A stretch of DNA of 64,000 nt from the NCBI GenBank assembly GCA_937858275.1, contig CALLZK010000006.1, forward strand, positions 13,389 through 77,388, given 5' to 3'. Under the pieces are notes generated by a model. It had not been told where the DNA came from, ran no database searches, and was given only the letters and a program-made list of their open reading frames with translations. The stretch comes from an uncultured bacterium. Its GTDB lineage: Bacteria; Patescibacteriota; Minisyncoccia; Phycocordibacterales; JAACPR01. Of this stretch, positions 1 to 33,586 are shown in pieces. Made by a program: the position numbers and the translations under genes. Every line of letters starts with the position of its first letter. Position 1 is the first letter of the stretch.

Positions 1-129
1 TTTTAATATATTTAAATTTTCAAAACAAATTTTTTTTATTTTGTCTGAAATAATAACTTGATCCCCTAACAAAATATGAAAATGATGAATTTTTCCTTCT
101 TTTTTATAAGTATTTGTAATTTCATTCAT
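1..129 (-). CDS. 5' part of an unidentified ORF that runs off the window start, immediately downstream of mreB
   Basis: ATG at 127-129 on the minus strand, open to position 1 (MNEITNTYKKEGKIHHFHILLGDQ...). It sits in the mreC position but has no N-terminal TM segment. Confidence 0.25.
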   Translation of the reverse strand, partial: MNEITNTYKKEGKIHHFHILLGDQVIISDKIKKICFENLNILK

Positions 130-131
130 AA

Positions 132-1160: not shown

Positions 1161-1213
1161 AATACTTTTTAATCCATTTTACAATTCCCTCAAAAAGTAT
1201 TAAAAATAAAGGT

Positions 1214-3166
1214 ATGTATATTATTGAGGTAACACCGTTTTCAAAAACAATAAGAACAAATAGCTTGTCGTATTTTTCAAGTCAAGAAATTTCTATTGGT
1301 TCAATAGTTTCTATTTCTATTAGAAACAAAAACATCAAAGGCTTAGTTACAAAAATCAGACCAGTCAAAGATTTGAAATCTGAACTAAAATCTTTTGATT
1401 ACACTTTAAAAAAAATAAAAGGTGTTTCAAAAAATATTTTATTCTCTACAGAATTTTTAAATGCAGTAGATTCAACAGCAAATTACTTTGCAACATCAAG
1501 CGGATCAATTATAAAATCTTTGGTTCCAGAAAATATTTTGGAAAGTATTGATAAAATAAAAAAAGTTGATTTTAAAAAACAAGAAGAAAATTCTGTTAAC
1601 AAGGAAAATAAAAATAAATTACAAAACATAGAAGATGAAGAAAATACAAAAAAGCCAAAATACATATTGCAAACCGAAGACAAAGACAGATACTCTGAAT
1701 ACAAAAGCATCATTAGAGAACAGTTTGCAAAAAACAAATCAGTCTTATTTTTTGTACCAACCATTGAAGATGGAAATTATGCTACTGAGGAATTATCAAG
1801 AGGTATAGAAAAACACACTTTTGTTTTGAACAGTAAAATAAGCAAAACCGAATTAATAAAAAAATGGAATGAAATTTTGAATAGACAAAAACCAAGTTTG
1901 ATTATTTCTACCCCCGGTTTTTCTGGTGTACCAATTAATGATTTGGGAGTTATGATAATTGAAAGAGAAAATTCAAATTCATACAGAACAAAAAATAGGC
2001 CGTATTTTGATCTTAGATTTTTCTTAGAAAAATATGCCGAAAATGCTGGAGCGATTTTGATTATCGGTGACTTAATATTGAGAACAGAAACACTATCAAG
2101 ATATGATCAGCAGGAATTTTTTGAACATGCTCCAATAAAATTTCGTTCAATTACAGATGCAACTCAAAAATTAATTGATTTAAAAGACAAATTTGAAATT
2201 GCCAAAAACGAAGATTTTATATCAGAAACATTAAAAAGAAAAATTGAAAATTGGCATCAAAAAAACGAACATACATTATTATTGGTTAATCGCCGAGGGG
2301 TGTCGCCAATTATTATTTGTAATGACTGTGGAACAATAGTCAAATGCGAACATTGTAGTTCGGCAATGGTTTTGCACGGAAAAGATATTAAAGAAGAAGG
2401 AAATCATTTGAAATGTCATAATTGTGGTAGCCAACGAGAAACTGACTTTATTTGTAAAAACTGTGGCGGATGGAGACTTGTAACACTTGGTGTTGGAACT
2501 GAAAAAATAGCTGAGTATATAAAAAATCTTTTTCCAGATTCCGAAACTTTTATTTTGGATAAAGATCATGCCCCAAATCCAAATAAAGCAAAAAGTATTG
2601 TTCAAAATTTTTATGATAGTCCAAATGGAATTTTGATTGGAACAGAAATGTCTTTACTTTATTTGCATCAGCAAATTGAAAATGTTGGAATTATTTCGAT
2701 TGATTCTTTATTTTTAATACCGGATTTTAGAATTAGAGAAAGAATTCTGAATATTTTACTGAGAGCAAGATCAATTGCATCACAAGACTTTGTCATTCAA
2801 ACAAGAAATAGTGAAGAAAAAATATTCAAAAATATAATAGAAGGAAATTTGACAGATTTTTATCGACAAGAATTCATTGATCGCAAGAGATTCAATTATC
2901 CCCCATTTAGTTTGATAATTAAAATTTCATTAACCGCAAAAAATATGGGGCAAATTGAAAAACAATTTGAAGCATTACAAAATTTTATAGGCGAATATCA
3001 AATTCGTGTTTATCCAGCATTTGTTGAAAGTGTTCGTGGAATGAAAATAATGAGAGGAATGATAAAAATTGATAGAAAAGATTGGCCGAATCAAAATTTA
3101 ATTGAGAAGTTGCAAAATTTACCGCCACAATTTAAAGTAGAAATTGATGCGGAAAGTGTTTTATAA
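1214..3166 (+). CDS. priA: Primosomal protein N' (PriA)-like; 4-Cys zinc region retained but helicase Walker A/B motifs degenerate
   Basis: CNDCG...CEHC...CHNCG...CKNCGG zinc-binding insert and LVNRRG are typical of PriA. The position equivalent to GxGKT reads QTEDKDRY, and DEEH reads EREN. Confidence 0.75.
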   Translation: MYIIEVTPFSKTIRTNSLSYFSSQEISIGSIVSISIRNKNIKGLVTKIRPVKDLKSELKSFDYTLKKIKGVSKNILFSTEFLNAVDSTANYFATSSGSIIKSLVPENILESIDKIKKVDFKKQEENSVNKENKNKLQNIEDEENTKKPKYILQTEDKDRYSEYKSIIREQFAKNKSVLFFVPTIEDGNYATEELSRGIEKHTFVLNSKISKTELIKKWNEILNRQKPSLIISTPGFSGVPINDLGVMIIERENSNSYRTKNRPYFDLRFFLEKYAENAGAILIIGDLILRTETLSRYDQQEFFEHAPIKFRSITDATQKLIDLKDKFEIAKNEDFISETLKRKIENWHQKNEHTLLLVNRRGVSPIIICNDCGTIVKCEHCSSAMVLHGKDIKEEGNHLKCHNCGSQRETDFICKNCGGWRLVTLGVGTEKIAEYIKNLFPDSETFILDKDHAPNPNKAKSIVQNFYDSPNGILIGTEMSLLYLHQQIENVGIISIDSLFLIPDFRIRERILNILLRARSIASQDFVIQTRNSEEKIFKNIIEGNLTDFYRQEFIDRKRFNYPPFSLIIKISLTAKNMGQIEKQFEALQNFIGEYQIRVYPAFVESVRGMKIMRGMIKIDRKDWPNQNLIEKLQNLPPQFKVEIDAESVL

Positions 3167-3195
3167 AAAAAGAACAAATTTGCTATAATTTAGAA

Positions 3196-3708
3196 ATGTC
3201 AGAAATAATACAAGTAGACAACAAAATATTAAGACAGGTCGCCAAAGAAATTCCAACAAAAGATATTGGTTCTGAAAAAATAAAAAAATTAATATCGAAA
3301 ATGGAACAGGCACTCAAAAAAGAAAAAGATGGTGTGGCTTTGGCTGGACCACAAATTGCAGAATCTTGGCGAATTTTTATTATATCTCCAATTGCATATG
3401 ACACAGTTCAGTTTTTGGGAGACAGAAAATATGTTTTTATAAATCCAAAAATAATCAAGAAATCAAATGATAAAAAATTAATGGAAGAAGGTTGTTTGTC
3501 TGTTAGACCATATTATGGCAAAGTCAGAAGATCAAGTAAGGCAACAGTAAGAGCATATGACGAAAATGGTCAAGAGTTTGAAATGGAAGGTGCCGGATTA
3601 ATTGCTCAAATTTTTCAACATGAAATAGATCATTTGGATGGAATATTATTTATTGATAAAGCAAAAGATGTAAGAGAAATACCAAAAGAAATTTATGAGC
3701 AAAAATAA
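3196..3708 (+). CDS. def: Peptide deformylase
   Basis: The three PDF motifs are present: G(P)Q, EGCLS and QHEIDHLDG (HExxH). Confidence 0.9.
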   Translation: MSEIIQVDNKILRQVAKEIPTKDIGSEKIKKLISKMEQALKKEKDGVALAGPQIAESWRIFIISPIAYDTVQFLGDRKYVFINPKIIKKSNDKKLMEEGCLSVRPYYGKVRRSSKATVRAYDENGQEFEMEGAGLIAQIFQHEIDHLDGILFIDKAKDVREIPKEIYEQK

Positions 3709-4588
3709 TTTAAAATTTATATTTTTTGGAACTGACTTTTTTAGTGTAAAAGTTTTGGAAGAATTAAAAAAATCTGACCTGACTCCTCTTGCAATTGTGA
3801 CTGCACCAGATCGTAAAAGCGGAAGAGGGCAAAAATTGCAAAAACCCCCAGCAAAAATATGGGTGGAAAATAATTTTGCAGAACAAATAAAAGTATTACA
3901 ACCAGAAAAATTAGATGATATTTTTTTGGAATCTTTAAAATCAATTAGTCCTGAGTATGATTTTTTTGCTGTAGCATCTTATGGAAAAATAATTCCAAAA
4001 AAAGTTATAGATTTGCCAAAATTTAAAGCACTGAATGTTCACCCTTCTTTACTACCTTTTTACAGAGGTGCATCGCCAATAGAATCTGCGATTTTAGATG
4101 ATCAAAAAGAGACCGGAGTCACAATAATGTTAATGGATGAAAAAATGGACCACGGACCAATTTTAAATCAAGAAATAGTTTTTTTTGAAGAGTGGTCAAA
4201 AAAAATTTTAGTTGAAGAAAAAATGGCTTTAATTGGCGGTAAATTGTTGACTGATACAATAAATGATTTTGTTATAAAAAAAGAAATAGAACCACAAGAA
4301 CAAAATCATGAGACTGCAACTTTTACAAAAAAAATAACAAAAGAAATGGGACAAATAAATTTTACGGATTTGGAAAATGAAAACAAAAGCAGAGAAATTT
4401 TTTTGAAAATACAAGCACTAAATCCGTGGCCTGGAGTTTTCTTTTTTATAAAACATCTTGATAAAGAAATTAGAGTAAAAATTACGAATGCAAAATTTGA
4501 AAATCAAAAATTAATTATAGAAACAGTTATTCCAGAAGGCAAAAAAGAAATGTCTTTTGCTGATTTTAATAAAGGTTTTATAAAATAA
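3695..4588 (+). CDS. fmt: Methionyl-tRNA formyltransferase
   Basis: N-terminal FFGTDFFSV, NVHPSLLPFYRG formyltransferase motif and a C-terminal Fmt domain. It overlaps the def stop, the classic def-fmt operon arrangement. Confidence 0.9.
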   Translation: MSKNNLKFIFFGTDFFSVKVLEELKKSDLTPLAIVTAPDRKSGRGQKLQKPPAKIWVENNFAEQIKVLQPEKLDDIFLESLKSISPEYDFFAVASYGKIIPKKVIDLPKFKALNVHPSLLPFYRGASPIESAILDDQKETGVTIMLMDEKMDHGPILNQEIVFFEEWSKKILVEEKMALIGGKLLTDTINDFVIKKEIEPQEQNHETATFTKKITKEMGQINFTDLENENKSREIFLKIQALNPWPGVFFFIKHLDKEIRVKITNAKFENQKLIIETVIPEGKKEMSFADFNKGFIK

Positions 4589-4719
4589 TTTATTCTATTT
4601 TTTAAAACAAAATCGCTTTTACAGTTCTTATCCTCGTCTCCTTTTTTCTTCAAATTGCACTTGACTAAAAAAGACTGCGGAGGAACTTATAAAAGCAATT
4701 TTGTTTTTAATAAATTTAA

Positions 4720-5100
4720 TTATTCTCTACCAAATTTTAAAAATTTTTTTATAGCATTTCCACCTCTACGAATTAGATGAATTTTTCGTTCTTTATTTTT
4801 ACGAACTCGACGAACCATCTCATCACAAGATTCTTCAATTGCAGATAAAATATCTTCTTGTGTTGATTCGGTTCTTAGTAATGTTCCCTTATGTGTTAAA
4901 TTAATTTCTGATCTAAAAATTTGTCCATTTTTGTGGTGCTCTCCGGTAATTTTTTCAACTTCAAATTCTACAATAATCAATTCATCAGGATTAAGTTTAA
5001 AAAATTTTTCGATGTGAGAAATTTTTTGCTCTATATGATTTCTCAAATCAGCTGTTAAATCCATGTTTGTCGCTTTTATATTCAAGTTGAAATTGCTCAT
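4720..5100 (-). CDS. hpf: Ribosome hibernation promoting factor / RaiA family (short form)
   Basis: MSNFNLNIKATNMDLTADLRNHIEQKI matches the N-terminus of sigma-54 modulation protein / YfiA family; ~126 aa. Confidence 0.75.
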   Translation of the reverse strand: MSNFNLNIKATNMDLTADLRNHIEQKISHIEKFFKLNPDELIIVEFEVEKITGEHHKNGQIFRSEINLTHKGTLLRTESTQEDILSAIEESCDEMVRRVRKNKERKIHLIRRGGNAIKKFLKFGRE

Positions 5101-5105
5101 GTTTT

Positions 5106-5330
5106 TTAGTTATCGCCTACTTTTAATAATTTAACCTGGGACATATGCCCACTTATTATTTTGACACCTCCTGGCGGATTGTCAAAGTGTTTAAACACAA
5201 GTTGACATATTCTTTTATTTGCCAATCCCCCTTTTGCTGGTTCGCGAACACAAATGATAAATTCGTTTTCTTTTATTTTTTCAATTGATTCTTTCTTAGA
5301 ATTCGGTTTTGCTTTTACTCGAATGTACAT
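5106..5330 (-). CDS. DUF167 (YggU-like) small protein
   Basis: AKGGLANKRICQLV resembles the DUF167 AKGGKAN motif; 74 aa. Confidence 0.55.
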   Translation of the reverse strand: MYIRVKAKPNSKKESIEKIKENEFIICVREPAKGGLANKRICQLVFKHFDNPPGGVKIISGHMSQVKLLKVGDN

Positions 5331-5413
5331 ATTTGTCTTTTATCATATTTAACTGTTGTATTATAAACTTTTTTTTGATATATTAAAGTCTGTGCTTTTT
5401 ATAAGCACAATAT

Positions 5414-5485
5414 TCCGCGATAGCTCAACGGTAGAGCAGTCGCCTGTTAAGCGATTGGTTCCAGGTTCGAATCCTGGTCGCGGAG
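5414..5485 (+). tRNA. tRNA-Asn (anticodon GTT)
   Basis: 72-nt cloverleaf folded by hand. Acceptor TCCGCGA/TCGCGGA, D-arm GCTC-AACGGTA-GAGC, anticodon stem GTCGC/GCGAT with loop CTGTTAA, T-arm CCAGG-TTCGAAT-CCTGG, discriminator G. No encoded CCA. Confidence 0.85.
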
Positions 5486-5507
5486 CCGAGTTGCGTTAGC
5501 TCAAAAT

Positions 5508-5804
5508 TTGTGGTCTAATATGGATGTCGAGCTAGCTCAAAAAGAGTTAAAAATAAACATCATGAACCAAGAAAATTTTAAATCACCAGAGAGTAACGAG
5601 AGATTAACACCTGAAAGAAAATTAGAAATTGCGATTGCATACATAAAAGATGACGCACTTAGATCTGGCAAAATGGTCACCCACTTTAATTCTACAGAAA
5701 TGCGGGAGCGTATAAAAAATACAATTGAACAAAAATATCTATCGGAAGCCGGGGTCACAGAAGAAGAGGCTATGGAGTTTTTGAGAGAGATTTTGAGTGA
5801 GTAA
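5508..5804 (+). CDS. Hypothetical protein, first ORF of the tRNA-adjacent cassette region
   Basis: ORF only; somewhat higher G+C than background. The true start may be the internal MNQENF. The 5' end overlaps a GAGCTAGCTCAAAA palindromic repeat. Confidence 0.35.
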   Translation: MWSNMDVELAQKELKINIMNQENFKSPESNERLTPERKLEIAIAYIKDDALRSGKMVTHFNSTEMRERIKNTIEQKYLSEAGVTEEEAMEFLREILSE

Positions 5805-5834
5805 TTTATTTTTAATACTACATCCCTATAAAAC

Positions 5835-6419
5835 ATGAAAACCGAATTTGAGGCAACATATCTGGATATTGATAAGAATGAAATTCGAGAAAAATTAAAA
5901 TCTCTTGGCGCTATGTTACTTCGTCCAGAATACATGCAACGAAGAAACAATTTTGATTTACAGAAATTTGGTAGAAATTTTTGGGAGTGGGCACGAGTTC
6001 GTGACGAGGGCGACAAAGTTACAATGGCATACAAATGCATTCCACCAAATGCCACAATAGACGATCAAAAAGAAATAGAATTTTCAATTTCGGATTTTGA
6101 CCTTGGTGTTGATTTTTTAGAAAATCTGGGTGCATACAAAACAAATTATTCAGAAACCCTAAGAGAAACCTGGGAATTAGATGGGGTTACTATTGATATT
6201 GACACATGGCCACATCTGGAACCATATATTGAAATCGAAAGCAGTAGTGAGGAAAACGTTAAAAGTGTTTCTAAAAAATTAGGGTTTGATTATGCGGATG
6301 CTAAATTCTGTGGTGCTGGAGAAATTTATCAAATGAAATACGGAATACATCCAGACAAATTAGCAATTGAAAAGGGTTCGATCAGGTTAACCTTTGAAGA
6401 TCCTAATCCTTTTTTATAA
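5835..6419 (+). CDS. CYTH-domain protein (CyaB / thiamine-triphosphatase-like triphosphate tunnel)
   Basis: N-terminal EFEATYLDID (ExExK-type CYTH signature) and size (~190 aa); higher G+C than flanks. Confidence 0.5.
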   Translation: MKTEFEATYLDIDKNEIREKLKSLGAMLLRPEYMQRRNNFDLQKFGRNFWEWARVRDEGDKVTMAYKCIPPNATIDDQKEIEFSISDFDLGVDFLENLGAYKTNYSETLRETWELDGVTIDIDTWPHLEPYIEIESSSEENVKSVSKKLGFDYADAKFCGAGEIYQMKYGIHPDKLAIEKGSIRLTFEDPNPFL

Positions 6420-6432
6420 TTTTTCACTATCC

Positions 6433-6476
6433 GTCTTGAGCTAGCTCAGAACGGGTTCGAGTCCTGTTTTGGGAGC
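6433..6476 (+). repeat. Pseudo-tRNA-like element (D-arm-like GAGCTAGCTCAGAACGG fused to T-arm-like GGTTCGAGTCCTG...GGGAGC); degenerate copy R0 of the cassette repeat
   Basis: Read directly from the sequence. Related GAGCTAGCTCAAAA copies lie at ~5527 and ~5498, right after tRNA-Asn. Confidence 0.5.
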
Positions 6477-6523
6477 ATTACTGTGCTAGCACAGGACGGG
6501 TCAAATAAACCCTCAAAAACGCT

Positions 6524-6883
6524 ATGGATAAATTAGATGAAAAATTAGAGAAAGAAATAATAGAACTTCTTGAATTTGTACTTCAGCCAATAAATGGAAA
6601 ATTTGTGTGTTTTGAGAATCCCATTACTATATATTCAACAATTAGAAAAGTTGGCGACAACAAAAGTATTTTTACAGAAGAAAATAAAATCATTTTTTAT
6701 CATATCAAATTAAACACTAAATACGGGGAAACTGTTCTTAGTGTCAATTCTGATAGTCTAAAAACTGATATAAATTATGCTGTCACTATTTCGTGCGGTC
6801 ATTCTGCCATACCAAACATGATCTCAAAAGAAGAATTCCAAGGGATTAATTCAAATATATTAAATTTATATAATAAAAAGTAA
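6524..6883 (+). CDS. Hypothetical protein (cassette ORF)
   Basis: ORF only; followed by repeat R1. Confidence 0.4.
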   Translation: MDKLDEKLEKEIIELLEFVLQPINGKFVCFENPITIYSTIRKVGDNKSIFTEENKIIFYHIKLNTKYGETVLSVNSDSLKTDINYAVTISCGHSAIPNMISKEEFQGINSNILNLYNKK

Positions 6884-6980
6884 AACCCTAAGGTTACCAA
6901 GACATCACCCTTTATTAAAGCCGTATAAGATGATATGATGATGGAATGTTTGAACAAGCATTCTGGTTAAAATTAACCAT

Positions 6981-7013
6981 CACACAAGTTAGAACGTCCT
7001 TCATTGGAGCCCG
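6981..7013 (+). repeat. Cassette-boundary repeat R1 (CACACAAGTTAGAACGTCCTTCATTGGAGCCCG)
   Basis: Member of a family with the consensus CACAGGTTCGAAC-N5-CACTAGACGGAGCC. Confidence 0.6.
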
Positions 7014-7122
7014 ACTTCAATTTGACAACAAAATCAATTTTGGTATTATATAGATATCACTACGAAAGAGACCCTGGTGTAGATACGTCTACATTGGGGG
7101 CTTTTTCTTTTTATTTTAAGTT

Positions 7123-7605
7123 CTAAATCTTATTTGAAAATTTATGATACAAATCGTTAAGAAAAGTTATTCTAATATTTTTATTTTTTATTAAAATAGA
7201 ACATTTTTTCTCATCTGGAGCTATTACCTCCGCAATTGAATTTTTATCTTTTAAAAACTCAACCAAACACCCAAAGTCACCATCTCCAGTAATTAAAATA
7301 CTTGAATCAAATTCTTTTTCATAAAAATCAGAACTAGCTTTTAAAACTAACTCTGCGTCACAATTCCCTTTAATTTTTTCACCTATAGAAACTGTTTGTT
7401 TAAAAATTAAAACATAACCACAGCTTTGTAGGTGTTCATAAAATTTTACTCTTTCAGGTACAAGGCCAATGAAAAGATAAACTTTGCTAGGATTAAATTT
7501 TTGACGAAGCCATCCTCGGAACTTCTTATAGTCAATCTCAAAACCAAGTTCCTTAGCAGAACGATATAAATTATTTCCATCAATATAGATGTTCAATTTA
7601 TTCAT
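7123..7605 (-). CDS. NYN-domain (LabA/PIN-like) protein, reverse-oriented cassette ORF
   Basis: YIDGNNLY ... ITGDGDF pattern typical of NYN/LabA-like nucleases. Confidence 0.5.
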   Translation of the reverse strand: MNKLNIYIDGNNLYRSAKELGFEIDYKKFRGWLRQKFNPSKVYLFIGLVPERVKFYEHLQSCGYVLIFKQTVSIGEKIKGNCDAELVLKASSDFYEKEFDSSILITGDGDFGCLVEFLKDKNSIAEVIAPDEKKCSILIKNKNIRITFLNDLYHKFSNKI

Positions 7606-7726
7606 TACCGGTATTGTAACATAAATACTAATTTAATCTGTTAAAATAACTTTATTTAAATTTTATAAATGTAGTGAAATCGCTGTGGGTTAACTTCCCT
7701 CCTCTCATATTTTAAGCCATATTTAT

Positions 7727-7764
7727 CATCACACAGGTTCGAACGTCCTCCACTAGACGGAGCC
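7727..7764 (+). repeat. Cassette-boundary repeat R2 (CATCACACAGGTTCGAACGTCCTCCACTAGACGGAGCC), best-conserved copy
   Basis: Direct sequence comparison with R1 and R3-R7. Confidence 0.65.
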
Positions 7765-7820
7765 ATTGTAAAGCAAAGTAAAGTGTTCTTCTTTTGTGAA
7801 TTAAGTTATAATTTTGTTAT

Positions 7821-8447
7821 ATGAAATTATTTTTATCATCTCTCTCAATATCAAGTGAACAGAAAGAAGCTTTTATAAATCTGGTTGAAAAAGATTTGTC
7901 TGACATAAAATTTGCTCTTATAGAAAACGCTGCTGACCCATACTCTCAGAAAGCAAAAGGGTTCGTTGAAGAAACAAGAAAAAATTTGCAGTCATTTGAA
8001 ATTAAACTGGAGCAAGTAAACCTACTTGAATATAAAAATAGACCTAACGAATTGTTTGAGAAGCTATCGAAGTTTGATGTTGTATGGATTGGTGGTGGAA
8101 ATACTTTTTATATTAGATGGTTAATGAAAGAAACTGGTTTTGATAACATAATAAACAAACTATTAGAAAAAGGTATTGTATACGGTGGCGGTAGTGCAGG
8201 AGCTATTGTCGCAGGTAAAACACTAAAATATTTCGACTTAGTTGATAATCCAGAAGATAGTCCTGAGCAAATTTATAACGGTCTAGGATTAACTAATTTA
8301 ATTATTATTCCACACTGGAATACAGAAAGTTTTCGGGATAAGTTAAAGGAAATAAAACAGCTATACGAAAAAGAAGATATCGAGGTAACGACGATAGAAG
8401 ACGGTAAGGCTATTGTAATAAAAGATGAGGATATTATTATTGTTTAA
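7821..8447 (+). CDS. Peptidase E / S51-family (cyanophycinase-like) serine peptidase
   Basis: GGGNTFYI and GGSAGAIV motifs characteristic of peptidase family S51. Confidence 0.6.
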   Translation: MKLFLSSLSISSEQKEAFINLVEKDLSDIKFALIENAADPYSQKAKGFVEETRKNLQSFEIKLEQVNLLEYKNRPNELFEKLSKFDVVWIGGGNTFYIRWLMKETGFDNIINKLLEKGIVYGGGSAGAIVAGKTLKYFDLVDNPEDSPEQIYNGLGLTNLIIIPHWNTESFRDKLKEIKQLYEKEDIEVTTIEDGKAIVIKDEDIIIV

Positions 8448-8535
8448 CGATAGACTTTTAGTTCTGAAAGAAAAGATTTGGAAATAACCCCAAAATCCCA
8501 GAAACCTCAAATTCTTTTTGTATAGAAACCCAATT

Positions 8536-8567
8536 CATAGTTCTGAACCTGTCCACTACACGGAGCC
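8536..8567 (+). repeat. Cassette-boundary repeat R3 (CATAGTTCTGAACCTGTCCACTACACGGAGCC)
   Basis: Same family as R2. Confidence 0.6.
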
Positions 8568-8597
8568 AAAGTTGATTATTTTTGATATACTTTTTAT

Positions 8598-8891
8598 ATG
8601 CACAAATGGGACATATACGAAATAACGACAACAGAAACTCCAATCCACGGGGTTATGTTACGAGGTAGAATTAGAAAATATGCCATGGCAAATAACATCA
8701 ACTTGTTGACCGAAAATGCTTCAGACAAGGAAAATACTGTTAGATTTGCGGTAGAAAAAGATTTCGATCCAAAAGAAATTGTAGCCTTTATAATAGAAGT
8801 GGTTCCAGATGCCGAAATTACCTTGATTCAAAAGGAATTAGTAAATCCAGTTTTATCAAAAATGAAAGTTAATATTGAAGATAGATATTAA
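8598..8891 (+). CDS. Hypothetical small protein (weak acylphosphatase-like resemblance)
   Basis: IHGVMLRGRIRKYA resembles acylphosphatase signature 1 only loosely. Confidence 0.3.
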   Translation: MHKWDIYEITTTETPIHGVMLRGRIRKYAMANNINLLTENASDKENTVRFAVEKDFDPKEIVAFIIEVVPDAEITLIQKELVNPVLSKMKVNIEDRY

Positions 8892-8900
8892 AAAACCAAT

Positions 8901-9503
8901 ATGAAAACAAATATTTTATTAATACACGGTGGGATGACTTTTAAAAACAGAAAGGATTATTTAAAATACCTAAAAGAAAGATCTATTGATTTGAAAGGTT
9001 ACAAAAGTTGGACAGATGAATATTTGGCCGAAAAACTCGGTAGAAATTATCAAATCATAAAACCAAGAATGCCCTTAAAAGATAATTCTCGTTACGAGGA
9101 TTGGAAAATACACTTTGAAAGATATTTACCACTTTTAGGGAAAAAATTTGTATTAATTGGAAATTCTCTTGGGGGTATATTTCTTGCAAAATATTTATCT
9201 GAGAATAAATTAAAAACAAAACCTCTTGGAACATTTTTGGTCTGCCCACCGTTTGACGACACTATCCCAACAGAAGATCTTGTTAATGGTTTCAAACTTA
9301 AATCAAATATTTCAATGCTAGAAAATAATACCGAAAAACTTTATTTAATGTTTTCTGAAAATGATGATTGTGTTCCTGTTTCTCATGCAGAAAAATATCG
9401 TTCCAAATTACCAAATTCAAAAATAATAATTTACAAAAATAAAAACGGTCATTTTAAAATTGCAAAATTTCCAGAGATTGTAAGACTTATAAAGGGGTTA
9501 TGA
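8901..9503 (+). CDS. Small alpha/beta serine hydrolase (RBBP9/YdeN-like)
   Basis: GNSLGG nucleophile elbow (GxSxG), ~200 aa, LLIHGG at the N-terminus. Confidence 0.5.
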   Translation: MKTNILLIHGGMTFKNRKDYLKYLKERSIDLKGYKSWTDEYLAEKLGRNYQIIKPRMPLKDNSRYEDWKIHFERYLPLLGKKFVLIGNSLGGIFLAKYLSENKLKTKPLGTFLVCPPFDDTIPTEDLVNGFKLKSNISMLENNTEKLYLMFSENDDCVPVSHAEKYRSKLPNSKIIIYKNKNGHFKIAKFPEIVRLIKGL

Positions 9504-9657
9504 GAAAAAAAGTTCTCGCATTTTTTCATTAAAGTTACATTGTTCTGTAATATTAAATGCCTTTTCGTGTAATATTTGTCATATTTTATTCGCTCAGGAC
9601 ACGTTGAATATTGAAATGGAAATTCTTTAAACGGACATTGCGGGTCAATGCGGTAAA

Positions 9658-9683
9658 GGTTCCGAACTCGAGACGGTGAGCCC
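9658..9683 (+). repeat. Degenerate cassette-boundary repeat R3b (GGTTCCGAACTCGAGACGGTGAGCCC) inside a G+C-rich non-coding stretch
   Basis: Shares the GGTTCGAAC ... GACGG.GAGCC core. Confidence 0.45.
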
Positions 9684-9771
9684 GTTTGACATGCTAACTA
9701 TTCTAATATATAATACATAAAAATCCGTACCTTCACTTTAGTTCAACAAACAAAAACCAAGGAGAGTAGAC

Positions 9772-10203
9772 ATGAATTGGCAAATATTGGCTTTTATATC
9801 CTGTATATGTTTTGGAGTAGCAAGTATTTTCTCGGCACACGTTGCGAAAATACAATCAAGCACTGTAACATTCCTGATATACACGGCCGGGATGTTCGTG
9901 GTATCTATAATTACTATACTTATTTCAAACATACGGGATGTTACGTTCAGTAAAGAGGCTATTTCGATTGCATTGGCGGCTGGAGTATTAGCATCGATTG
10001 CTGTACTACTGCAACTTGTAGCATTCGCAAAGTGGTCAGATAAGTTCGCTCTAATAGTGATTGTTGGTAGTTTATATCCAGCAGTTGTTATGGCATTCTC
10101 TGTATTCAGCGGACATAAATTCAGCGCAACACAGTGGCTAGGGTTTATCTGCGCAATTGTAGCAATAATCCTAATAAGTATGCCCCAAAAAATATCTCAG
10201 TAA
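9772..10203 (+). CDS. Small 4-TM membrane protein (EamA/DMT half-transporter-like)
   Basis: Hydrophobicity pattern; G+C clearly above background; own AGGAG RBS and TATAAT box. Confidence 0.45.
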   Translation: MNWQILAFISCICFGVASIFSAHVAKIQSSTVTFLIYTAGMFVVSIITILISNIRDVTFSKEAISIALAAGVLASIAVLLQLVAFAKWSDKFALIVIVGSLYPAVVMAFSVFSGHKFSATQWLGFICAIVAIILISMPQKISQ

Positions 10204-10285
10204 AACACCCATCACTTCAGCACAGATAACTCATCACTGTGACAAAGTGATGGGTTTTCTTTTATCCAACTCCCCCATTTCATAC

Positions 10286-10320
10286 AAAACAGGTTCGAAC
10301 GCCCTTCACCAGACAGAGCA
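10286..10320 (+). repeat. Cassette-boundary repeat R4 (CAAAACAGGTTCGAACGCCCTTCACCAGACAGAGCA)
   Basis: Same family. Confidence 0.6.
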
Positions 10321-10384
10321 AAAATTGACTCTTTATATTAACTGTAGTAATGTCAAATCAGAGTTCTTACGAAAGGAATAAGAA

Positions 10385-10675
10385 ATGAAAGTAACTTTTA
10401 TCTTCAATTTGATTACCGAAAATGGAAGTAATCGTGGTCACGCAAGGAAAGTAGAGGACGTACCGTGGATTGAAAGTGGTATGGAAATTTGTTTTCCCTA
10501 TTCGGGTCAATCTTTCATAATCGATTCAACCTCACTCATGATTGGCACCAAAGAGATTATGGCCTGGATAAAAAATCATGATGGTACCCCCATCAATAAC
10601 TATGCTGTCGTCGAGACCTTCAAGTCGAATGGATGGGAAGTTTGCGACATCGGAGTCGGCCAAGGAATGATTTGA
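10385..10675 (+). CDS. Hypothetical protein (cassette ORF, elevated G+C)
   Basis: ORF only. Confidence 0.4.
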   Translation: MKVTFIFNLITENGSNRGHARKVEDVPWIESGMEICFPYSGQSFIIDSTSLMIGTKEIMAWIKNHDGTPINNYAVVETFKSNGWEVCDIGVGQGMI

Positions 10676-10775
10676 GAAAGGTGACCGCCAAAAAGTCTTG
10701 ACCCCCTTAGCTTAATTGCTGAGGGGAGTCTTTTTATATAGAGGGTCGTATTAGATATAATTGCTATTCCCTACT

Positions 10776-10810
10776 CACACAGGTTCGAACTAGTCTTAGT
10801 CCGCGGAGAC
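10776..10810 (+). repeat. Cassette-boundary repeat R5 (CACACAGGTTCGAACTAGTCTTAGTCCGCGGAGAC)
   Basis: Same family. Confidence 0.6.
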
Positions 10811-10841
10811 AGCTATAGCTTTTTTTGATACACTTAAAATT

Positions 10842-11192
10842 ATGAGAAATTTTGAAAAACTAGCAGAAAATAAAAATGAGGGGTATCCGGGAATTTCAAT
10901 AGAACAAATTAATTCTCTTTCGAATATTTTTAGAAATTTCGAAAAAATTGGAAGCGTAACATTATTCGGTTCTAGGATTACCGGAGAGCACAAAGATAAT
11001 TCTGACTTAGACATAGCACTAACTGGCGCAGAGGGTAAAAAATTACATTTATCTGATATGTACGACACTATTCACCGATTAGTTATGGAACAAACAGGTC
11101 TTGATGTACACATTAAGATAATTAGCGAGATAAATAATCCGGCGCTACTGCATTCGATAAAAGACCAAGGTGTCGTAATTTACCAAAGATAA
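10842..11192 (+). CDS. Minimal nucleotidyltransferase (MNT, Pol-beta superfamily; antitoxin-type)
   Basis: GSRITGEHKDNSDLDIAL = GS-x9-11-DxD nucleotidyltransferase signature; 116 aa. Confidence 0.6.
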   Translation: MRNFEKLAENKNEGYPGISIEQINSLSNIFRNFEKIGSVTLFGSRITGEHKDNSDLDIALTGAEGKKLHLSDMYDTIHRLVMEQTGLDVHIKIISEINNPALLHSIKDQGVVIYQR

Positions 11193-11221
11193 GTTCGAAC
11201 ATCCTTCACTAGACCGGAGCC
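11189..11221 (+). repeat. Cassette-boundary repeat R6 (TAAGTTCGAACATCCTTCACTAGACCGGAGCC), overlaps the MNT stop codon
   Basis: Same family. Confidence 0.6.
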
Positions 11222-11318
11222 ATGTAGAACAGTTAGCTAATTATAGGATCAATTTATAGGTTTTTCATGTTGTAAACTCTGGCTTTTTCTTATCTTTGTA
11301 AATCAATTAGAATAAAGA

Positions 11319-12059
11319 CTACTGCATGAGCACGAAATTAACCGCTAGTGTGTTTACAAAAATATGTATTATTATCGAAGGTATTAATGATCCACTTTTC
11401 TCATATATCCAACTGCTAAATAATCCGAGAAATAACAGGAAGAAAATAGAAGAAAAACTAAAATGTACTAATGTAAAAATTAATGCGCTAATGACAGATG
11501 ATGTAATAAATAAATATTTCTGCCTTAAGAATTTATATAACACTCCTCTAAAATAGATTTCTTCAGAAATCGGAATCAAAATTCCTACGAACAACTTAAA
11601 ATCGATCAGATTTAAAATTAAATTATCTGACAGTGTAAACTGTAATACATCCATAGTTGTGTTATCTATACCAAAAAAATTATTAAAAATATTAGTTAGG
11701 CTTCCGCCAACAACCACTACCAATATTGCCAAGATTAATGAATATAAAAACCATTTAATAAATTTAATATTTGGATTAATATACATATTTAAGGAAACCC
11801 CCTTTTTGTGTAGAAACAAAATTACAGGAGATAAAATTGAGACGATTAACCCAAAATTTATTATTAAAGATTTAAAGTAATTTTCTATTTCATTAAAATA
11901 CATAGCAAGTAAAACAAAAAAGAAAAACATAAGCAGGCTAGAAAGTGTTATGTAGACAAATTCCTTAAAAGTCCAGAATTCTTTTTTTAATAAATTTTCT
12001 TTATTGATCATATAATTAAAGTATAACATTAGACTATTTACATAACGATAAAATATCAT
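11319..12059 (-). CDS. CPBP (CAAX) family intramembrane metalloprotease, reverse-oriented cassette ORF
   Basis: EEIYFRG (motif 1), FTLVHF (motif 2) and HIFVN (motif 3) in a multi-TM protein. Confidence 0.65.
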   Translation of the reverse strand: MIFYRYVNSLMLYFNYMINKENLLKKEFWTFKEFVYITLSSLLMFFFFVLLAMYFNEIENYFKSLIINFGLIVSILSPVILFLHKKGVSLNMYINPNIKFIKWFLYSLILAILVVVVGGSLTNIFNNFFGIDNTTMDVLQFTLSDNLILNLIDFKLFVGILIPISEEIYFRGVLYKFLRQKYLFITSSVISALIFTLVHFSFSSIFFLLFLGLFSSWIYEKSGSLIPSIIIHIFVNTLAVNFVLMQ

Positions 12060-12093
12060 TAAACTAGTGTTCTTGTTGAATCTTATTTCAATT

Positions 12094-12124
12094 CAGAGTT
12101 CTGAACCTGTCTACTAGACGAATC
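12094..12124 (+). repeat. Cassette-boundary repeat R7 (CAGAGTTCTGAACCTGTCTACTAGACGAATC)
   Basis: Same family; last recognisable copy. Confidence 0.55.
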
Positions 12125-12166
12125 AACTTATATATTTTCACTAAATTATTTGCTACAATTATAAAT

Positions 12167-12547
12167 ATGAAAAATACACAAAAAGGTTTTGTGGTTCTTT
12201 TAATAATTGCAATTGTGGCATTTATGACTGTTGGTGGTGGAATATATTTATATAATTCGAGTCAAATTACAAGACCAGAAACACGATCTTCTAATATAAA
12301 TAATGGTGAAAAAAACAACACAACAGATGAAGATTCACAAAATACAGATACCACAACAGATCCAAATAATTCTGACGACGGTATTATAATTGCTTGTACC
12401 ATGGATGCCATGCAATGCCCTGATGGTAGTTGGATTGGTAGAACTGGAACGAATTGTGAGTTTGCTTGTCCACCATTACCAAAAGTAAATACAGAAACTA
12501 AATCTCAAATTTTTCTTAAGAAAATGAGTGCCGATTACCAACTTTAA
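12167..12547 (+). CDS. Secreted/membrane-anchored Cys-rich small protein
   Basis: N-terminal TM/signal, N/T/D-rich linker and a 6-Cys C-terminal module (CTMDAMQCPDGS...NCEFACPP). Confidence 0.4.
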   Translation: MKNTQKGFVVLLIIAIVAFMTVGGGIYLYNSSQITRPETRSSNINNGEKNNTTDEDSQNTDTTTDPNNSDDGIIIACTMDAMQCPDGSWIGRTGTNCEFACPPLPKVNTETKSQIFLKKMSADYQL

Positions 12548-12776
12548 CCGCCTTTTACACATCTGAATCTGGCACAGGATATACAAATGAAGAAGTAGTC
12601 TGCATTATTCAAGGAATTAGAGAATTTATTCCAGATTACCCACCAATAACGACCCACTATGAACTAATTTGTATGGATATAAAATAATTTTTTATATTAT
12701 CTAAAAAAATAATGTGTGTGGACCCTCTTTTTAGTACTTCACACATGCATTATTATTAACACTAATTAAATAGTTA

Positions 12777-13841
12777 TTATTTATATTTAAAAATTACATC
12801 TTCTAATAGATAAATATTATTTATCACCTCAACATTAAAATTATGAATGCCAACAACCTGCCCCTTTCCCGTTTCAATTACAACTCTCCATTTTCCAGAT
12901 GAGTAATTTGAAACATATGAATAACTTCTGTAACCATAATCTCTGCCGCCCTGTAAATTTATCGGTATTTTGGCGACATTTTGCCATTTATTTGTTTTGG
13001 TATCATATTTTTGCCAGACATGATATATTTCAGTTTTTATTTTTGAAGGAGCAAATACCGAATTAAAAAAATAAATTCTCTGATTTGGAAGTAAAGATAT
13101 TTTTTCTTTCCAATTAATTAAACCTAGCAATTTCACACTATCGTTTTTGTAATCTGTTATTTTATAAATATTGTTTTCTTTTACGACATTTATTCCAATT
13201 TCAGCATCCATCATTACAAGCGGAACTGGTGGAATAAAATTCAAAAAATACATAAAATTTACAATTAAAAAAAGCATTGAGATAGTGACAATGTTTTTCA
13301 GAAATAATATATTTTTATTTATAAATTTTTTAATTATAAATAAATAAAAATAAATTATAGTCAGTGCAACTAAACCACTAATCATAAAAATCCAAAAATT
13401 CATAATTCCTGTGACAATTGGTAAATGAAAAATTAAAAAAGAAAAAATGGCTAAAAAATATACAGAAATTTGAATATTAAAAATTTGATATTGTTTTCGT
13501 AAAAACTCTGTACTTATCATTGCTCCAAATAATAAAATTAAAAATGGCCAACTTGCTGATATTGCTGAGCTTCTCACATAAAAAACAGTAAAAACACTAA
13601 ACAGTCCCCCGAATGTGAAAAATAAAAGAAAATTAAAAATTGAAACATATCTTGATTGTTGGTATTTATTAATTACCATTATAATAATTCCGGCCAACAA
13701 AAGATAAAAAAGCAAAAGTAAATTTTCTGCTAACAAGTCTGATCTTCGTAAAGTTAAACTGTCAATAAAAAATCCACCAAACATAAAAATTGGACCAATA
13801 TATTTTTCATTTTTTTTAAAATAATTTAAAATATTTTTCAT
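12777..13841 (-). CDS. Integral membrane protein with a C-terminal extracytoplasmic domain
   Basis: About 7 predicted TM helices followed by a soluble beta-rich region. Confidence 0.4.
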   Translation of the reverse strand: MKNILNYFKKNEKYIGPIFMFGGFFIDSLTLRRSDLLAENLLLLFYLLLAGIIIMVINKYQQSRYVSIFNFLLFFTFGGLFSVFTVFYVRSSAISASWPFLILLFGAMISTEFLRKQYQIFNIQISVYFLAIFSFLIFHLPIVTGIMNFWIFMISGLVALTIIYFYLFIIKKFINKNILFLKNIVTISMLFLIVNFMYFLNFIPPVPLVMMDAEIGINVVKENNIYKITDYKNDSVKLLGLINWKEKISLLPNQRIYFFNSVFAPSKIKTEIYHVWQKYDTKTNKWQNVAKIPINLQGGRDYGYRSYSYVSNYSSGKWRVVIETGKGQVVGIHNFNVEVINNIYLLEDVIFKYK

Positions 13842-13863
13842 ACAAAAAATTATTTTTCAAAAA

Positions 13864-15243
13864 TCAACCTCTAATCCAATCAGTTTTATCATTTTTATCA
13901 AGAAGATCAATTCCCTTTTCTTTCAAAAAAACTCTTATTTGATCCGCTTTCACAAAATCATTTTCGGCACGATATTTATTTCTCAAATCAATATTTTTTT
14001 GCACTTCCAAATCCGAAATGCTATTTGATTCTAGTTTTTTATAAAAAGCCTTCAAATCAATACCCAAAAACATTGCTCCACCCAAAAGTTTTTCTGCAGA
14101 ATCAATATCACCACCCAATGCCAATTTGTATAGATTTGAAAGATATGCCAAAGCTTTTGGTGTATTCAAGTCATCATATAAAAAAGCAAAAAAAGATTCT
14201 TCAGGATCTTTTGCAATAGAAACATTTTTTATTGCATTTGACCACTTTGTTATTTTTTCTTTTGTTTCTTTTAATAAGTCATCTGTCCAATTTATTTGTG
14301 ACCGATAATGTGAAGAAATTAGAGCTAATCTAATAATTGCTCCATCCCACTTTTCTAAAAGAGAATTTACGGTTAAGAAATTACCAAGAGATTTTGACAT
14401 TTTTTCATTATTTATATTTATTAATCCATTGTGAATCCAAAAATTTGCCATTTTTTTGTCAGTCAAACATGTGCTTTGAGCAATTTCATTTTCATGATGT
14501 GGAAATACAAGATCTATACCACCACCATGTATATCAAATGTTTCTCCCAAATATTTCAAAGACATGGCTGAACACTCGATATGCCAACCTGGCCTACCGT
14601 ATCCCCAAGGAGATTCCCAGCCAATAGTTTCTGAATCTGACGGCTTCCACAAAACAAAATCATTTGAATCTTCTTTGTCTTTTGAAATTTCAATTCTGAC
14701 ACCGTCAATCAAATCACTTAAATTTTGATTAGATAATTTTCCATATTCAGCATATTTGGAAACATCAAAAAAGACATGTTCATTTTTGATATAGGCATAT
14801 TTTTTTTCAATCAAACCAGAGATAAAAGAAATTATTTCCTTTATGTGTTCGCTCACTTTTGGTTCAAAATTAGGTGACAAAACACAAAGATCTTTTAGGT
14901 TGTCATGATAAACCTTTGTGACATTTTTAATCAAAACCTCATGAGATATTTTTTGTTTTTTTACCTCGTTATTTATTTTGTCGTCGACATCTGTAATATT
15001 TCTAACATAAACCACATTTTTTATTCCGTATTTTTTTATTAAAACCCTATATAACAAATCAAAAACAATAGCTGGCCTAGCATTTCCAATGTGCGGATCT
15101 CCATATACAGTTGGTCCGCAAACATACATTTTGACAAAATCATCTTTTATTGGTATAAAAAGTTCTTTTTTCCTATTTAAGGTATTAAAAAAATATAAAT
15201 CTGACATTACTATAAATTTACCAGAAAAAAATAAAAATGTCAT
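13864..15243 (-). CDS. cysS: Cysteine--tRNA ligase
   Basis: HIGNARP (HIGH), KMSKS, CysRS-type zinc-site Cys residues. The likely true start is the internal MSDLYFFNTLNRKKELF (~15207). Confidence 0.9.
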   Translation of the reverse strand: MTFLFFSGKFIVMSDLYFFNTLNRKKELFIPIKDDFVKMYVCGPTVYGDPHIGNARPAIVFDLLYRVLIKKYGIKNVVYVRNITDVDDKINNEVKKQKISHEVLIKNVTKVYHDNLKDLCVLSPNFEPKVSEHIKEIISFISGLIEKKYAYIKNEHVFFDVSKYAEYGKLSNQNLSDLIDGVRIEISKDKEDSNDFVLWKPSDSETIGWESPWGYGRPGWHIECSAMSLKYLGETFDIHGGGIDLVFPHHENEIAQSTCLTDKKMANFWIHNGLININNEKMSKSLGNFLTVNSLLEKWDGAIIRLALISSHYRSQINWTDDLLKETKEKITKWSNAIKNVSIAKDPEESFFAFLYDDLNTPKALAYLSNLYKLALGGDIDSAEKLLGGAMFLGIDLKAFYKKLESNSISDLEVQKNIDLRNKYRAENDFVKADQIRVFLKEKGIDLLDKNDKTDWIRG

Positions 15244-32950: not shown

Positions 32951-33586
32951 ATGCATAAAATACAAGAAAAAATATTAAAATTATTAGAAAATCAAAATTT
33001 AAACGGTTTGACCCTTAGACAAATAGCCGAGTTGGTCGAAGAAAAATTCCCTCAAAAAATAAAGCATCACCTTACCCAATTACAAAATAAAGGTTTAATA
33101 AAAATTAATTCAAAAACAAAAACCATAGAAAAAATTTTTCGAGGAACAGGTGTTCAAAAAAATTTAATTAATGTTCCGATTGTTGGAACCGCAAATTGTG
33201 GTCCCGCAACCATATTTGCAAATGAAAATATAGAAGGATATCTAAAAATATCCAAAAATATTTTAAAAAAGTGTAAAAGAATATTTGCAATAAAAGCTCG
33301 CGGTTTATCAATGAATAATGCAATTGTTGATGGAAAAAACATAGAAGATGGAGATTATTTGATAATTGATAGCGAAGATACAAACCCCAAAAATGGTGAT
33401 GTTGTTTTGTCTGTAATAGATGATATGGCAAATATAAAAAAATATATTTGGGATGACGATCATAATCAGGTTGTACTAGTCTCTCAATCAACAAAAGACA
33501 TTCCCCCAATATATATTCACGAGGATGATAGTTTTATGATAAATGGAAAAGTTATTCAGGTTATAAAAAAACCAAAAATGGCTTAG
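32951..33586 (+). CDS. lexA: LexA-like repressor (wHTH + S24 peptidase)
   Basis: N-terminal wHTH (LTLRQIAELV), C-terminal GLSM ... K Ser-Lys dyad region. Confidence 0.6.
   Translation: MHKIQEKILKLLENQNLNGLTLRQIAELVEEKFPQKIKHHLTQLQNKGLIKINSKTKTIEKIFRGTGVQKNLINVPIVGTANCGPATIFANENIEGYLKISKNILKKCKRIFAIKARGLSMNNAIVDGKNIEDGDYLIIDSEDTNPKNGDVVLSVIDDMANIKKYIWDDDHNQVVLVSQSTKDIPPIYIHEDDSFMINGKVIQVIKKPKMA

Follow-up and report, generated by a model that had tools for sequence, protein, structure and literature searches.

Organization of the locus

Bacteria of the candidate phyla radiation (CPR, Patescibacteria) have very small genomes, and how they acquire genes is little understood. Here we analyse a 64,000-nucleotide stretch of DNA from an uncultured member of this group (contig CALLZK010000006.1; hereafter 'the window'), in which an array of small, unrelated genes, punctuated by a short repeated sequence that we call the box, lies directly 3′ of a tRNA-Asn gene. 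Positions 1-15100 of the window are 99.99% identical to a contig of a Candidatus Paceibacterota metagenome-assembled genome (DAOLBR010000003.1, GCA_035324455.1). The tRNA gene is the only one in the window (ARAGORN; Rfam 72 bits) and follows the core genes MreB, PriA, def, fmt, HPF and YggU; core genes start again at 12777 with DUF2914 (12777-13841, − strand), followed by CysRS.

Between tRNA-Asn and DUF2914 there are 12 small unrelated open reading frames (ORFs), five of which, including a Cys-rich one at 12167-12547, have no Pfam family. These ORFs make up nine or ten units, each 0.4-1.1 kb long and holding one or two genes, at a per-kb G+C of 0.29-0.38 in a window of roughly 0.30, and every box lies on the + strand, co-oriented with tRNA-Asn. 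An earlier interpretation made from the letters and their translations (the sequence-only reading) had described about 13 such ORFs in a cassette-like array anchored on the tRNA-Asn 3′ end. The array and its anchor hold with a count of 12, and Pfam recovers all the domains that had been named (CYTH, NYN, S51, serine hydrolase, EamA, nucleotidyltransferase and CPBP).

The features are given below, where the offset is the distance between the RGTTC and GGAGC motifs of a site, and B-type and P-type denote spacings like those of the attB and attP sites of serine integrases, as explained further on.

5414-5487, +: tRNA-Asn(gtt); its last 24 nt, 5464-5487, GGTTCGAATCCTGGTCGCGGAGCC, are the putative attB-type (B) half-site, offset 18
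5488-6453, +: unit 0; 80-aa ORF from ATG at 5563-5804 (longest ORF from TTG at 5508) and CYTH gene at 5835-6419 (Pfam)
6454-6476, +: R0, GGTTCGAGTCCTGTTTTGGGAGC; tRNA-type spacing, offset 18; a degenerate orthologous copy in locus L014
6524-6883, +: unit 1; 119-aa ORF, no Pfam family
6987-7011, +: box R1, AGTTAGAACGTCCTTCATTGGAGCC; shortened copy, offset 19
7022-7110, +: promoter (TTGACA-16-TATTAT) and ~55-nt hairpin-terminator transcript, belonging to the NYN unit
7123-7605, −: unit 2; NYN-domain nuclease gene (Pfam), inverted relative to the array
7736-7764, +: box R2, GGTTCGAACGTCCTCCACTAGACGGAGCC; P-type, offset 23
7821-8447, +: unit 3; Peptidase_S51 gene (Pfam)
8539-8567, +: box R3, a GTTCTGAAC variant; P-type, offset 23
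8598-9503, +: unit 4; 97-aa ORF at 8598-8891 and Ser_hydrolase gene at 8901-9503 (Pfam)
9658-9682, +: box R4; decayed, ~4 nt shorter, profile E = 2; followed by the region's best promoter match at 9686-9714
9772-10256, +: unit 5; EamA half-transporter gene at 9772-10203 (Pfam) and terminator hairpin at 10228-10256
10292-10320, +: box R5; P-type, offset 23, core AGAGCA
10385-10726, +: unit 6; 96-aa ORF at 10385-10675 and terminator at 10703-10726
10782-10810, +: box R6; P-type spacing, type-B spacer (..TCCGCGGAGAC)
10842-11192, +: unit 7; minimal nucleotidyltransferase gene (Polbeta/NTP_transf_2, Pfam), whose stop codon touches box R7
11192-11221, +: box R7; P-type with a 1-nt insertion, offset 24
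11319-12059, −: unit 8; Rce1/CPBP-type protease gene (Pfam), inverted relative to the array
12097-12125, +: box R3b; P-type spacing, mutated core GAATCA
12167-12547, +: unit 9; Cys-rich secreted protein gene, the final unit before the core genes

At the distal edge of the array, the frame past the stop of the Cys-rich ORF looks coding-like to ~12687 (12548-12690), which may reflect a frameshifted or truncated gene.

A box conserved in sequence and confined to one locus

The box is roughly 30 nt long and follows the pattern RGTTCGAAC-N14-GGAGC, or more loosely RGTTC(G)AAC, ~14 nt and GGAGC(C/A). A search with a profile built from the repeat copies returned seven clear copies, each on the + strand and within 6.9-12.2 kb (E = 3e-9 to 1e-4). 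The remaining 59 kb of the window hold none; R4 and R0 are two further, degenerate or variant, copies. The sequence-only reading had counted at least nine. Seven are clear, R4 is decayed, and R0 is real, as a different type of site. The consensus pattern had 0 matches in 100 shuffles, and in the 554-kb near-complete RA.bin143 contig the exact pattern is found in one stretch only, beside tRNA-Asn. Thus, as had been anticipated, the repeats are specific to the tRNA-Asn locus, both by profile over 64 kb and by exact pattern over 554 kb, and do not show the dispersal of repetitive extragenic palindromic (REP) sequences, bacterial interspersed mosaic elements (BIMEs) or terminators. DNA-uptake sequences and replication Ter sites were discarded for the same confinement to one locus, in which the boxes track tRNA-Asn.

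Between its two motifs the box carries one of several unrelated spacer types, such as A (ATCCTTCACTAGAC), B (TAATTGAAGTCCGC) and D (CCGTTGCAGTTGGC). RNAalifold found 0 consensus pairs on either strand across 23 copies, and the boxes fold as single-stranded DNA no better than shuffles (z −1.2 to +1.6, DNA parameters). Neither the boxes nor R0 match any Rfam family, tRNA included, at E ≤ 1, and ARAGORN does not call R0 as a tRNA. Pairing of the boxes as a T-arm was rejected, as the flanks of GGTTCGAAC are non-complementary by inspection and there is no consensus pairing; R0 is the only copy able to form a T-arm. The conserved feature of the boxes is their sequence, not a structure.

This bears directly on the integron interpretation, in which the locus would be a true integron or a cluster of attC sites lacking an integron integrase (CALIN), the boxes non-canonical attC sites recombined as folded single strands, and the enzyme an IntI-type tyrosine recombinase encoded elsewhere. 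The sequence-only reading had leaned this way and had proposed to look for attC-like hairpins. The one-directional array of short, mostly single-gene units split by a repeated site speaks for such an interpretation, as do the two inverted units, the toxin–antitoxin-like nucleotidyltransferase in the cargo and, as in CALINs, the lack of a nearby integrase. However, attC sites are imperfect inverted repeats of ~57-141 nt that act as single-strand hairpins, with structure conserved over sequence, whereas the boxes reach only ~30 nt (against at least ~57 nt), have no conserved hairpin on either strand and conserve their sequence instead. The units also have their own promoters, and the recombinases linked to such arrays, described below, are of the serine type, with no IntI-type tyrosine recombinase associated. 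We therefore consider an integron or CALIN highly improbable.

Gene content turns over behind a conserved tRNA-Asn

Scans with the exact pattern detected the box in two other Patescibacteria genomes (loci L005 and L014) and ten metagenome contigs, usually as several copies on the same strand. Matches in genome collections outside Patescibacteria were single chance matches in high-G+C genomes, and those in four viral contigs (single copies, 40-60% G+C, box-profile E 0.18-0.47) also look like chance. In L005 the array is again 3′ of tRNA-Asn behind the same core genes; L014, whose array genes are all ORFans by Pfam, starts inside tRNA-Asn, and its full-contig version, L033, keeps the PriA-def-fmt-HPF-YggU synteny. 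Further loci were fetched through fmt homologues at 57-65% fmt identity, as HPF gave just two matches as a synteny probe. The order MreC-MreB-ProRS-...-PriA-def-fmt-HPF-YggU-tRNA-Asn is kept in relatives with 64-65% fmt identity (L041/L042 and L045), and MreB through PriA-def-fmt-HPF-YggU-tRNA-Asn is retained in one at 57% (L047/L048).

Despite this shared PriA-def-fmt-HPF-YggU-tRNA-Asn block, the genes that follow the tRNA are unrelated among the window, L033, L041, L045 and L005, and in each relative examined this differing content is still punctuated by boxes. The boundary is sharp in the comparison of L041 with L045, which share 80% nucleotide identity over the 11.6 kb leading to tRNA-Asn and for ~55 nt past it; beyond that, only junction repeats are common to both. 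The cassette polymorphism that the sequence-only reading had proposed to look for is thus pronounced, with entirely different content after tRNA-Asn in related genomes. Single units nonetheless recur: that of the 80-aa ORF in L014 (4590-4894, 83% nucleotide identity), 4.5 kb from the tRNA and behind a box; the NYN unit (7019-7784) in L018 (180-908), with a different downstream gene; and the 97-aa ORF in L045 (17902-18201, 65% amino acid identity), in another context.

Contigs of several assemblies, including ones of 88 and 216 kb, end at or just after tRNA-Asn (L032, L034, L047 and L048; L014 starts there). Strain heterogeneity was set aside as an account of the ends at the tRNA 3′ end in L032, L034 and L014: two co-occurring sister species with an identical tRNA 3′ segment could break the assembly. 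The ends of L047 and L048 are a real alternative junction.

Boxes and tRNA ends differ in spacing by 5 nt

The two motifs of the box are also present at the tRNA-Asn 3′ end, with a different distance between them. From RGTTC to GGAGC, all five distinct tRNA-Asn 3′ ends among the loci measured have an offset of 18 nt, and 24 of 26 distinct boxes have one of 23 nt, whatever their spacer type, the exceptions being R7 (24) and R0 (18). Boxes are thus 5 nt longer than the tRNA segment, and their middle is unrelated to the T-stem and acceptor sequence. The zinc-ribbon domain of serine integrases binds a motif whose distance to the crossover, or centre, is 5 bp shorter in attB half-sites than in those of attP (Rutherford et al. 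2013, PMC3783163). The offsets of 18 and 23 match this shift, which gives the tRNA end a B-type and the boxes a P-type geometry, and partner sites are expected to be identical at the GGAGC core that both share. Of the earlier proposal that the repeats are attachment sites of the tRNA-3′-end type, the relation to the tRNA and, probably, the attachment function survive; simple copies of the tRNA they are not. Likewise, R0, which had been described as a pseudo-tRNA fragment, is real and has tRNA-type spacing, but neither ARAGORN nor Rfam recognises it.

The sequences on the far side of the core are more diverse. At the box junctions of L054 and L061, a CTTTC/GCTTC motif lies across the core in approximately the same register as the box-side GGTTC (by hand count), which by inspection makes a roughly symmetric ~54-bp site centred on GGAGC. 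We attempted to call right arms as B′- or P′-type from the register of their motifs and abandoned this, as they are too diverse; a 4-nt GCACGA-like shift is suggestive at a few junctions. Which class of right arm a site has is independent of its left-arm type: TTGTAAAGCAAAGTAAAG, for example, is the right arm of type-A boxes in the window and in L018 and of another box type in L041, where a hybrid spacer, TAATTGAAG|TTGGC, also joins types B and D. Both this independence and the hybrid are as exchange at the core would produce.

Large serine recombinase genes of relatives end on the tRNA or on a box

As the sequence-only reading had remarked, there is no integrase in view: none of the window's ORFs of 90 aa or more has a recombinase domain (Pfam, including PF00589), XerD and Hin probes found nothing in it, and tblastn detected no remnant of a large serine recombinase (LSR) gene in the window or in other LSR-less arrays. 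Locus L047, from Parcubacteria, contains a gene for Recombinase and zinc-ribbon domains that extends into the tRNA-Asn 3′ end. The complete version of this protein, P0123, and its homologues are LSRs of 520-590 aa with Resolvase, Recombinase and Zn-ribbon domains, a family with 1390 database matches at E ≤ 1e-20 whose named sources are Paceibacterota, Kaiserbacteria, Nomurabacteria and Wolfebacteria. Six LSR genes with all three domains abut a site, either the tRNA-Asn 3′ end (L047/L049, the proximal one of L054, L056, L058 and L061) or a box (the distal one of L054), and in all five family members looked up the 3′ end of the gene overlaps the tRNA-Asn 3′ end or a box:

P0123, L049-L053: LSR 3′ end at tRNA-Asn
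P0134, L056: LSR 3′ end at tRNA-Asn
P0176, distal element of L054: LSR 3′ end on a box
510-aa LSR, outside the five looked up, proximal element of L054: LSR 3′ end on the tRNA
P0160, L058: LSR 3′ end at tRNA-Asn; boxes and a NUDIX unit beyond the element
P0210, L061: complete 8.5-kb element from tRNA (offset 18) to box (offset 23)

The tRNA and box junctions of L061, 8.5 kb apart, both carry GGAGCAAAGTAG, and L054 holds two LSR elements in tandem, with ordinary boxes and small units farther out. The P0123 LSR and its tRNA segment are found at 99.9% identity in two different host backgrounds, and L047 and L048 are identical over 11,899 nt and diverge immediately after GGAGCAT. On these comparisons, the LSR elements are evidently mobile and specific for the tRNA-Asn site, and the evidence points to an LSR as the recombinase of the array.

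The LSR elements carry defence- or conflict-type cargo, including an N6_N4 methyltransferase and a ResIII restriction enzyme in L049 (1-10000), an AAA_15/AAA_21 ATPase in L061 (3090-10000), DUF2326 with CTD10/MC6/MC7 in L054 (2700-9990) and PLDc_2 with SHOCT in L058 (2900-9960). HTH_17 excisionase-like genes are present in the L049 element and, beside the tRNA-proximal LSR, in that of L054. A conserved C-terminal tail of the LSRs (..STFVPSCPILLRG; P0123, P0160 and P0176; L047 11870-11960) is encoded across the attachment core, its residues MLRG/LLRG corresponding to the reverse complement of TCCGCGGAGCA, so that integration alters the last codons of the recombinase gene. In several relatives, a group I intron splits the anticodon loop of tRNA-Asn (Rfam RF00028, 80.9 and 66 bits; L045 11620-12265 and L056 2021-2334), and the tRNA-Asn of L058 is likewise interrupted by a candidate intron (~11600-12130); the interrupting segments of L045 and L058 encode an HNH endonuclease. 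Where tRNA-Asn is split in this way, the LSR elements still abut its 3′ exon.

The association with serine recombinases weighs on another explanation, that the boxes are partial-tRNA scars left by serial tyrosine-integrase elements at tRNA-Asn whose integrase parts have since been lost. Tycheposon islands scatter partial tRNAs in this manner, newer elements pushing older ones inward (10.1101/2020.12.28.424599); here, too, a tRNA 3′ end opens the array, the boxes resemble the T-loop and acceptor end, and R0 has true tRNA spacing and a foldable T-arm. Yet the boxes are not tRNA copies, given their longer and unrelated inter-motif segment, no tyrosine recombinase lies beside tRNA-Asn in the loci examined (the lone PF00589 match, in L049, is more than 10 kb away), and all six recombinase genes that abut a site are serine recombinases. 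Scars of tyrosine integrases are thus an improbable origin of the boxes. Xer/dif systems (integrative mobile elements exploiting Xer, IMEX, or pdif modules) were rejected as well, given a site that is the end of a tRNA and lacks the 11-6-11 structure of dif, and recombinases of the serine type linked to it.

Boxes lie between terminators and promoters

In the window, a promoter and a terminator of their own accompany most units. Among the sigma-70-type promoter matches of the region, the best two start directly after R4 and R1, and of three + strand terminators, those at 10228-10256 and 10703-10726 stand directly before R5 and R6 and that at 7072-7099 ends the short transcript that follows R1. 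The order is highly regular in L045, where each unit runs from stop codon through terminator hairpin, a ~35-nt conserved stretch, box and ~45-nt promoter module to the next start codon. This position between a terminator and the next promoter argues for a role of the boxes at the level of DNA, and most of them are probably untranscribed.

It also makes it very unlikely that the boxes are RNA elements, that is, mimics of a T-arm and acceptor that would process or stabilise transcripts in the way of tRNA punctuation. The T-loop-like motif GGTTCGAA and the acceptor-like GGAGCC end would suit such a role, and R0 can be drawn as a minihelix of acceptor and T-arm; against this stand, besides the probable lack of transcription, the missing T-stem pairing and covariation and the lack of Rfam matches noted above.

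The proximity to promoters would fit boxes that are regulatory DNA, such as an operator or upstream activating site, in an array that varies by homologous recombination or transformation at its ~60-120-nt junctions, without any site-specific recombinase. Promoter-like sequences lie 3-12 nt past many boxes, the two best after R4 and R1; in L045 and L041 the box is fused to a conserved promoter module with the palindrome TTTCGT-TG-ACGAAA; in L017 and L021 a second GTTCGAAC, itself palindromic, occupies the promoter spacer; junctions of ~120 nt at 85-87% identity could allow homologous exchange; and the window has no recombinase. Nevertheless, the distance from box to promoter varies (3-12 nt by eye), the genes after R1 and R7 are on the opposite strand, and no box is found outside the array in 64 kb, while the tRNA-Asn 3′ end in the first box position, the LSR genes that end precisely on a tRNA or box and the exact spacings of 18 (tRNA) and 23 (box) are all left unexplained. 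Overall, we hold a purely regulatory role to be unlikely.

Additional palindromes accompany some boxes. A near-palindrome, AATGTTTGAACAAGCATT, lies ~25 nt before R1 (6948-6965) and again in an intergenic spacer of the L014 array (664-684). In some arrays (L017 440-530, 1490-1590 and 2060-2150; L021 980-1000 and 1556-1576; L019 1-20), the box is followed by a terminator-like hairpin and then by a promoter with the second GTTCGAAC palindrome in its spacer, which suggests that this palindrome may be recognised by a DNA-binding protein as well. The short transcript at 7022-7110, which has a strong promoter, converges on the NYN gene and has a counterpart in L018 (~185-275) with three compensatory base-pair changes; this ~55-nt transcript may act on the NYN gene as a small RNA of antisense or antitoxin type.

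A probable accretion array at a serine recombinase attachment site

Taken together, we consider it likely that the locus is an accretion array of Paceibacterota/Parcubacteria, built at the attB site of an LSR in the 3′ end of tRNA-Asn. The boxes are, with similar likelihood and judging from their sequence and neighbours, attP-type half-sites at which the LSR would attach. This builds on the anatomy of the sites and their restriction to the locus, on the turnover of content and on the LSR genes adjoining tRNA ends and boxes, all directly observed. In such an array, the last ~24 nt of tRNA-Asn would serve as an attB-type left half-site, with its distal motif GGTTCGAA 18 nt from the GGAGC core, and a box as an attP-type left half-site with both motifs, the distal one 5 bp farther out (23 nt). 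Strand exchange would take place in or just past the shared GGAGC(A/C) core, so that each insertion would leave the tRNA intact and place the incoming box at the far end, next to the previous neighbour of the tRNA. Repeated insertion would then move older units outward and yield the order tRNA, unit, box, unit, box in a single orientation. LSR elements may have brought in, collected or abandoned the small units, acting in trans or with an alternative box as the right-hand excision site. Three origins are conceivable for them: mini-circles mobilised in trans, pick-up or drop at LSR excision through an alternative box, and homologous recombination between junctions.

Several observations weigh against the accretion array. 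The window and several other arrays lack LSRs, fragments of them and any other recombinase, so the action of an LSR at the window array would be an extrapolation from relatives. There are only six LSR contexts, five of which were found by homology to an LSR already at tRNA-Asn, and the sample is therefore biased toward that site. Because canonical serine integrases recombine attP with attB only, tandem build-up needs insertion beside the tRNA with a replaced right arm, a non-standard substrate; tandem insertion does occur despite this difficulty, as the two elements of L054 illustrate. Right arms are too diverse for a B′ or P′ assignment, and the altered spacing of R1 and R4, together with the mutated cores of R5, R6 and R3b, implies that at least part of the array is a relic. 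Last, units of one gene with its own promoter and terminator are unlike the product of simple decay of 7-10 kb LSR elements.

A stronger version of the accretion array is that Paceibacterota hold a serine-recombinase counterpart of the integron, in which an LSR provided in trans from a transient element would take up self-expressed one-gene cassettes, insert them at tRNA-Asn and reorder them there. We regard this as a tentative possibility, and that single cassettes are individually mobile as similarly doubtful.

Implications

The presence of the locus in relatives with 57-65% fmt identity makes it look like a dedicated, site-specific gene-sampling platform conserved across the clade. We found no description of it in the full texts that were searched for integrons in Patescibacteria, CPR cassette arrays at tRNA-Asn and LSR integration at tRNAs in CPR. 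If the boxes are serine-integrase half-sites, integron-like arrays can also arise through another recombinase family, unrelated to that of integrons, and the 5-bp shift between attB and attP gains an independent illustration from comparative genomics. They would also constitute a natural set of many attP-type sites with matched tRNA attB sites for compact serine integrases, of possible use in genome engineering. Should LSRs in addition act in trans, these host-dependent bacteria with tiny genomes would own a dedicated gene-sampling platform in which each cassette is tagged by an attP-type half-site.

Other features of the window

The cumulative GC skew of the window peaks near 10-11 kb, inside the array, and has its minimum near 61 kb. 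Both extremes coincide with switches in gene orientation and are probably an effect of the coding strand rather than a terminus and origin, which would be just 50 kb apart. Elsewhere, the window encodes a LexA-like repressor (32951-33586; Peptidase_S24 and LexA DNA-binding domains) and a PD-(D/E)XK/Cas4-like nuclease (41559-42323).

Comparison with known systems

The array shares with integrons and CALINs its short, functionally unrelated units, which mostly have one gene and one orientation and each close with a recombination-type repeat, as well as the turnover of content among relatives and the possibility of an array without a nearby integrase. It differs in that there is no attC hairpin, no IntI with attI and no common Pc promoter; the units bring their own promoter and terminator, a tRNA end takes the place of attI as the first site, and a serine-family recombinase is associated.

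A variable island that is anchored on a tRNA within a streamlined genome is also typical of the tycheposon islands of Prochlorococcus (10.1101/2020.12.28.424599) and of accretion by cis-mobilizable elements (CIMEs) and integrative and conjugative elements (ICEs), in which newer elements push older ones outward and recombinase-bearing elements are rare while att-bearing remnants are common. Those systems rely on tyrosine recombinases and true partial-tRNA repeats, whereas here R0 alone has tRNA spacing, the repeats would be attP-type half-sites, 5 nt longer than the tRNA segment, and the recombinases are of the serine type.

Among serine-integrase systems (Listeria A118/LI, Bxb1 and phiC31; PMC3783163), the similarities extend to bipartite half-sites with the distal motif 5 bp outward in the element-type site, a short core of identity at the crossover, and a recombinase gene with Resolvase, Recombinase and Zn-ribbon domains next to its own site. 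The 5-bp shift is present here, hybrid junctions with a shared core occur in relatives, and a three-domain LSR lies beside the sites in six related contexts, though not in the window. In contrast to those systems, the target is a tRNA 3′ end, the one-directional array of recombinase-less one-gene units is long, and its tandem build-up would imply reactions beyond a strict attP × attB.

The nearest analogue is offered by the composite islands of the staphylococcal cassette chromosome (SCC) at rlmH/orfX, where Ccr LSRs operate and ccr-less psi-SCC elements are separated by direct-repeat integration sites (10.1101/336396). By this analogy, in both systems LSRs would insert DNA into a conserved housekeeping gene at its 3′ end, accretion would be tandem, recombinase-less members would lie between repeated att cores, and mosaic content would vary among strains. 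The array described here differs in its CPR host and tRNA site and in its scale, with units of 0.4-1.1 kb and one or two genes, up to nine or ten in a row, compared to 5-60 kb for SCC.

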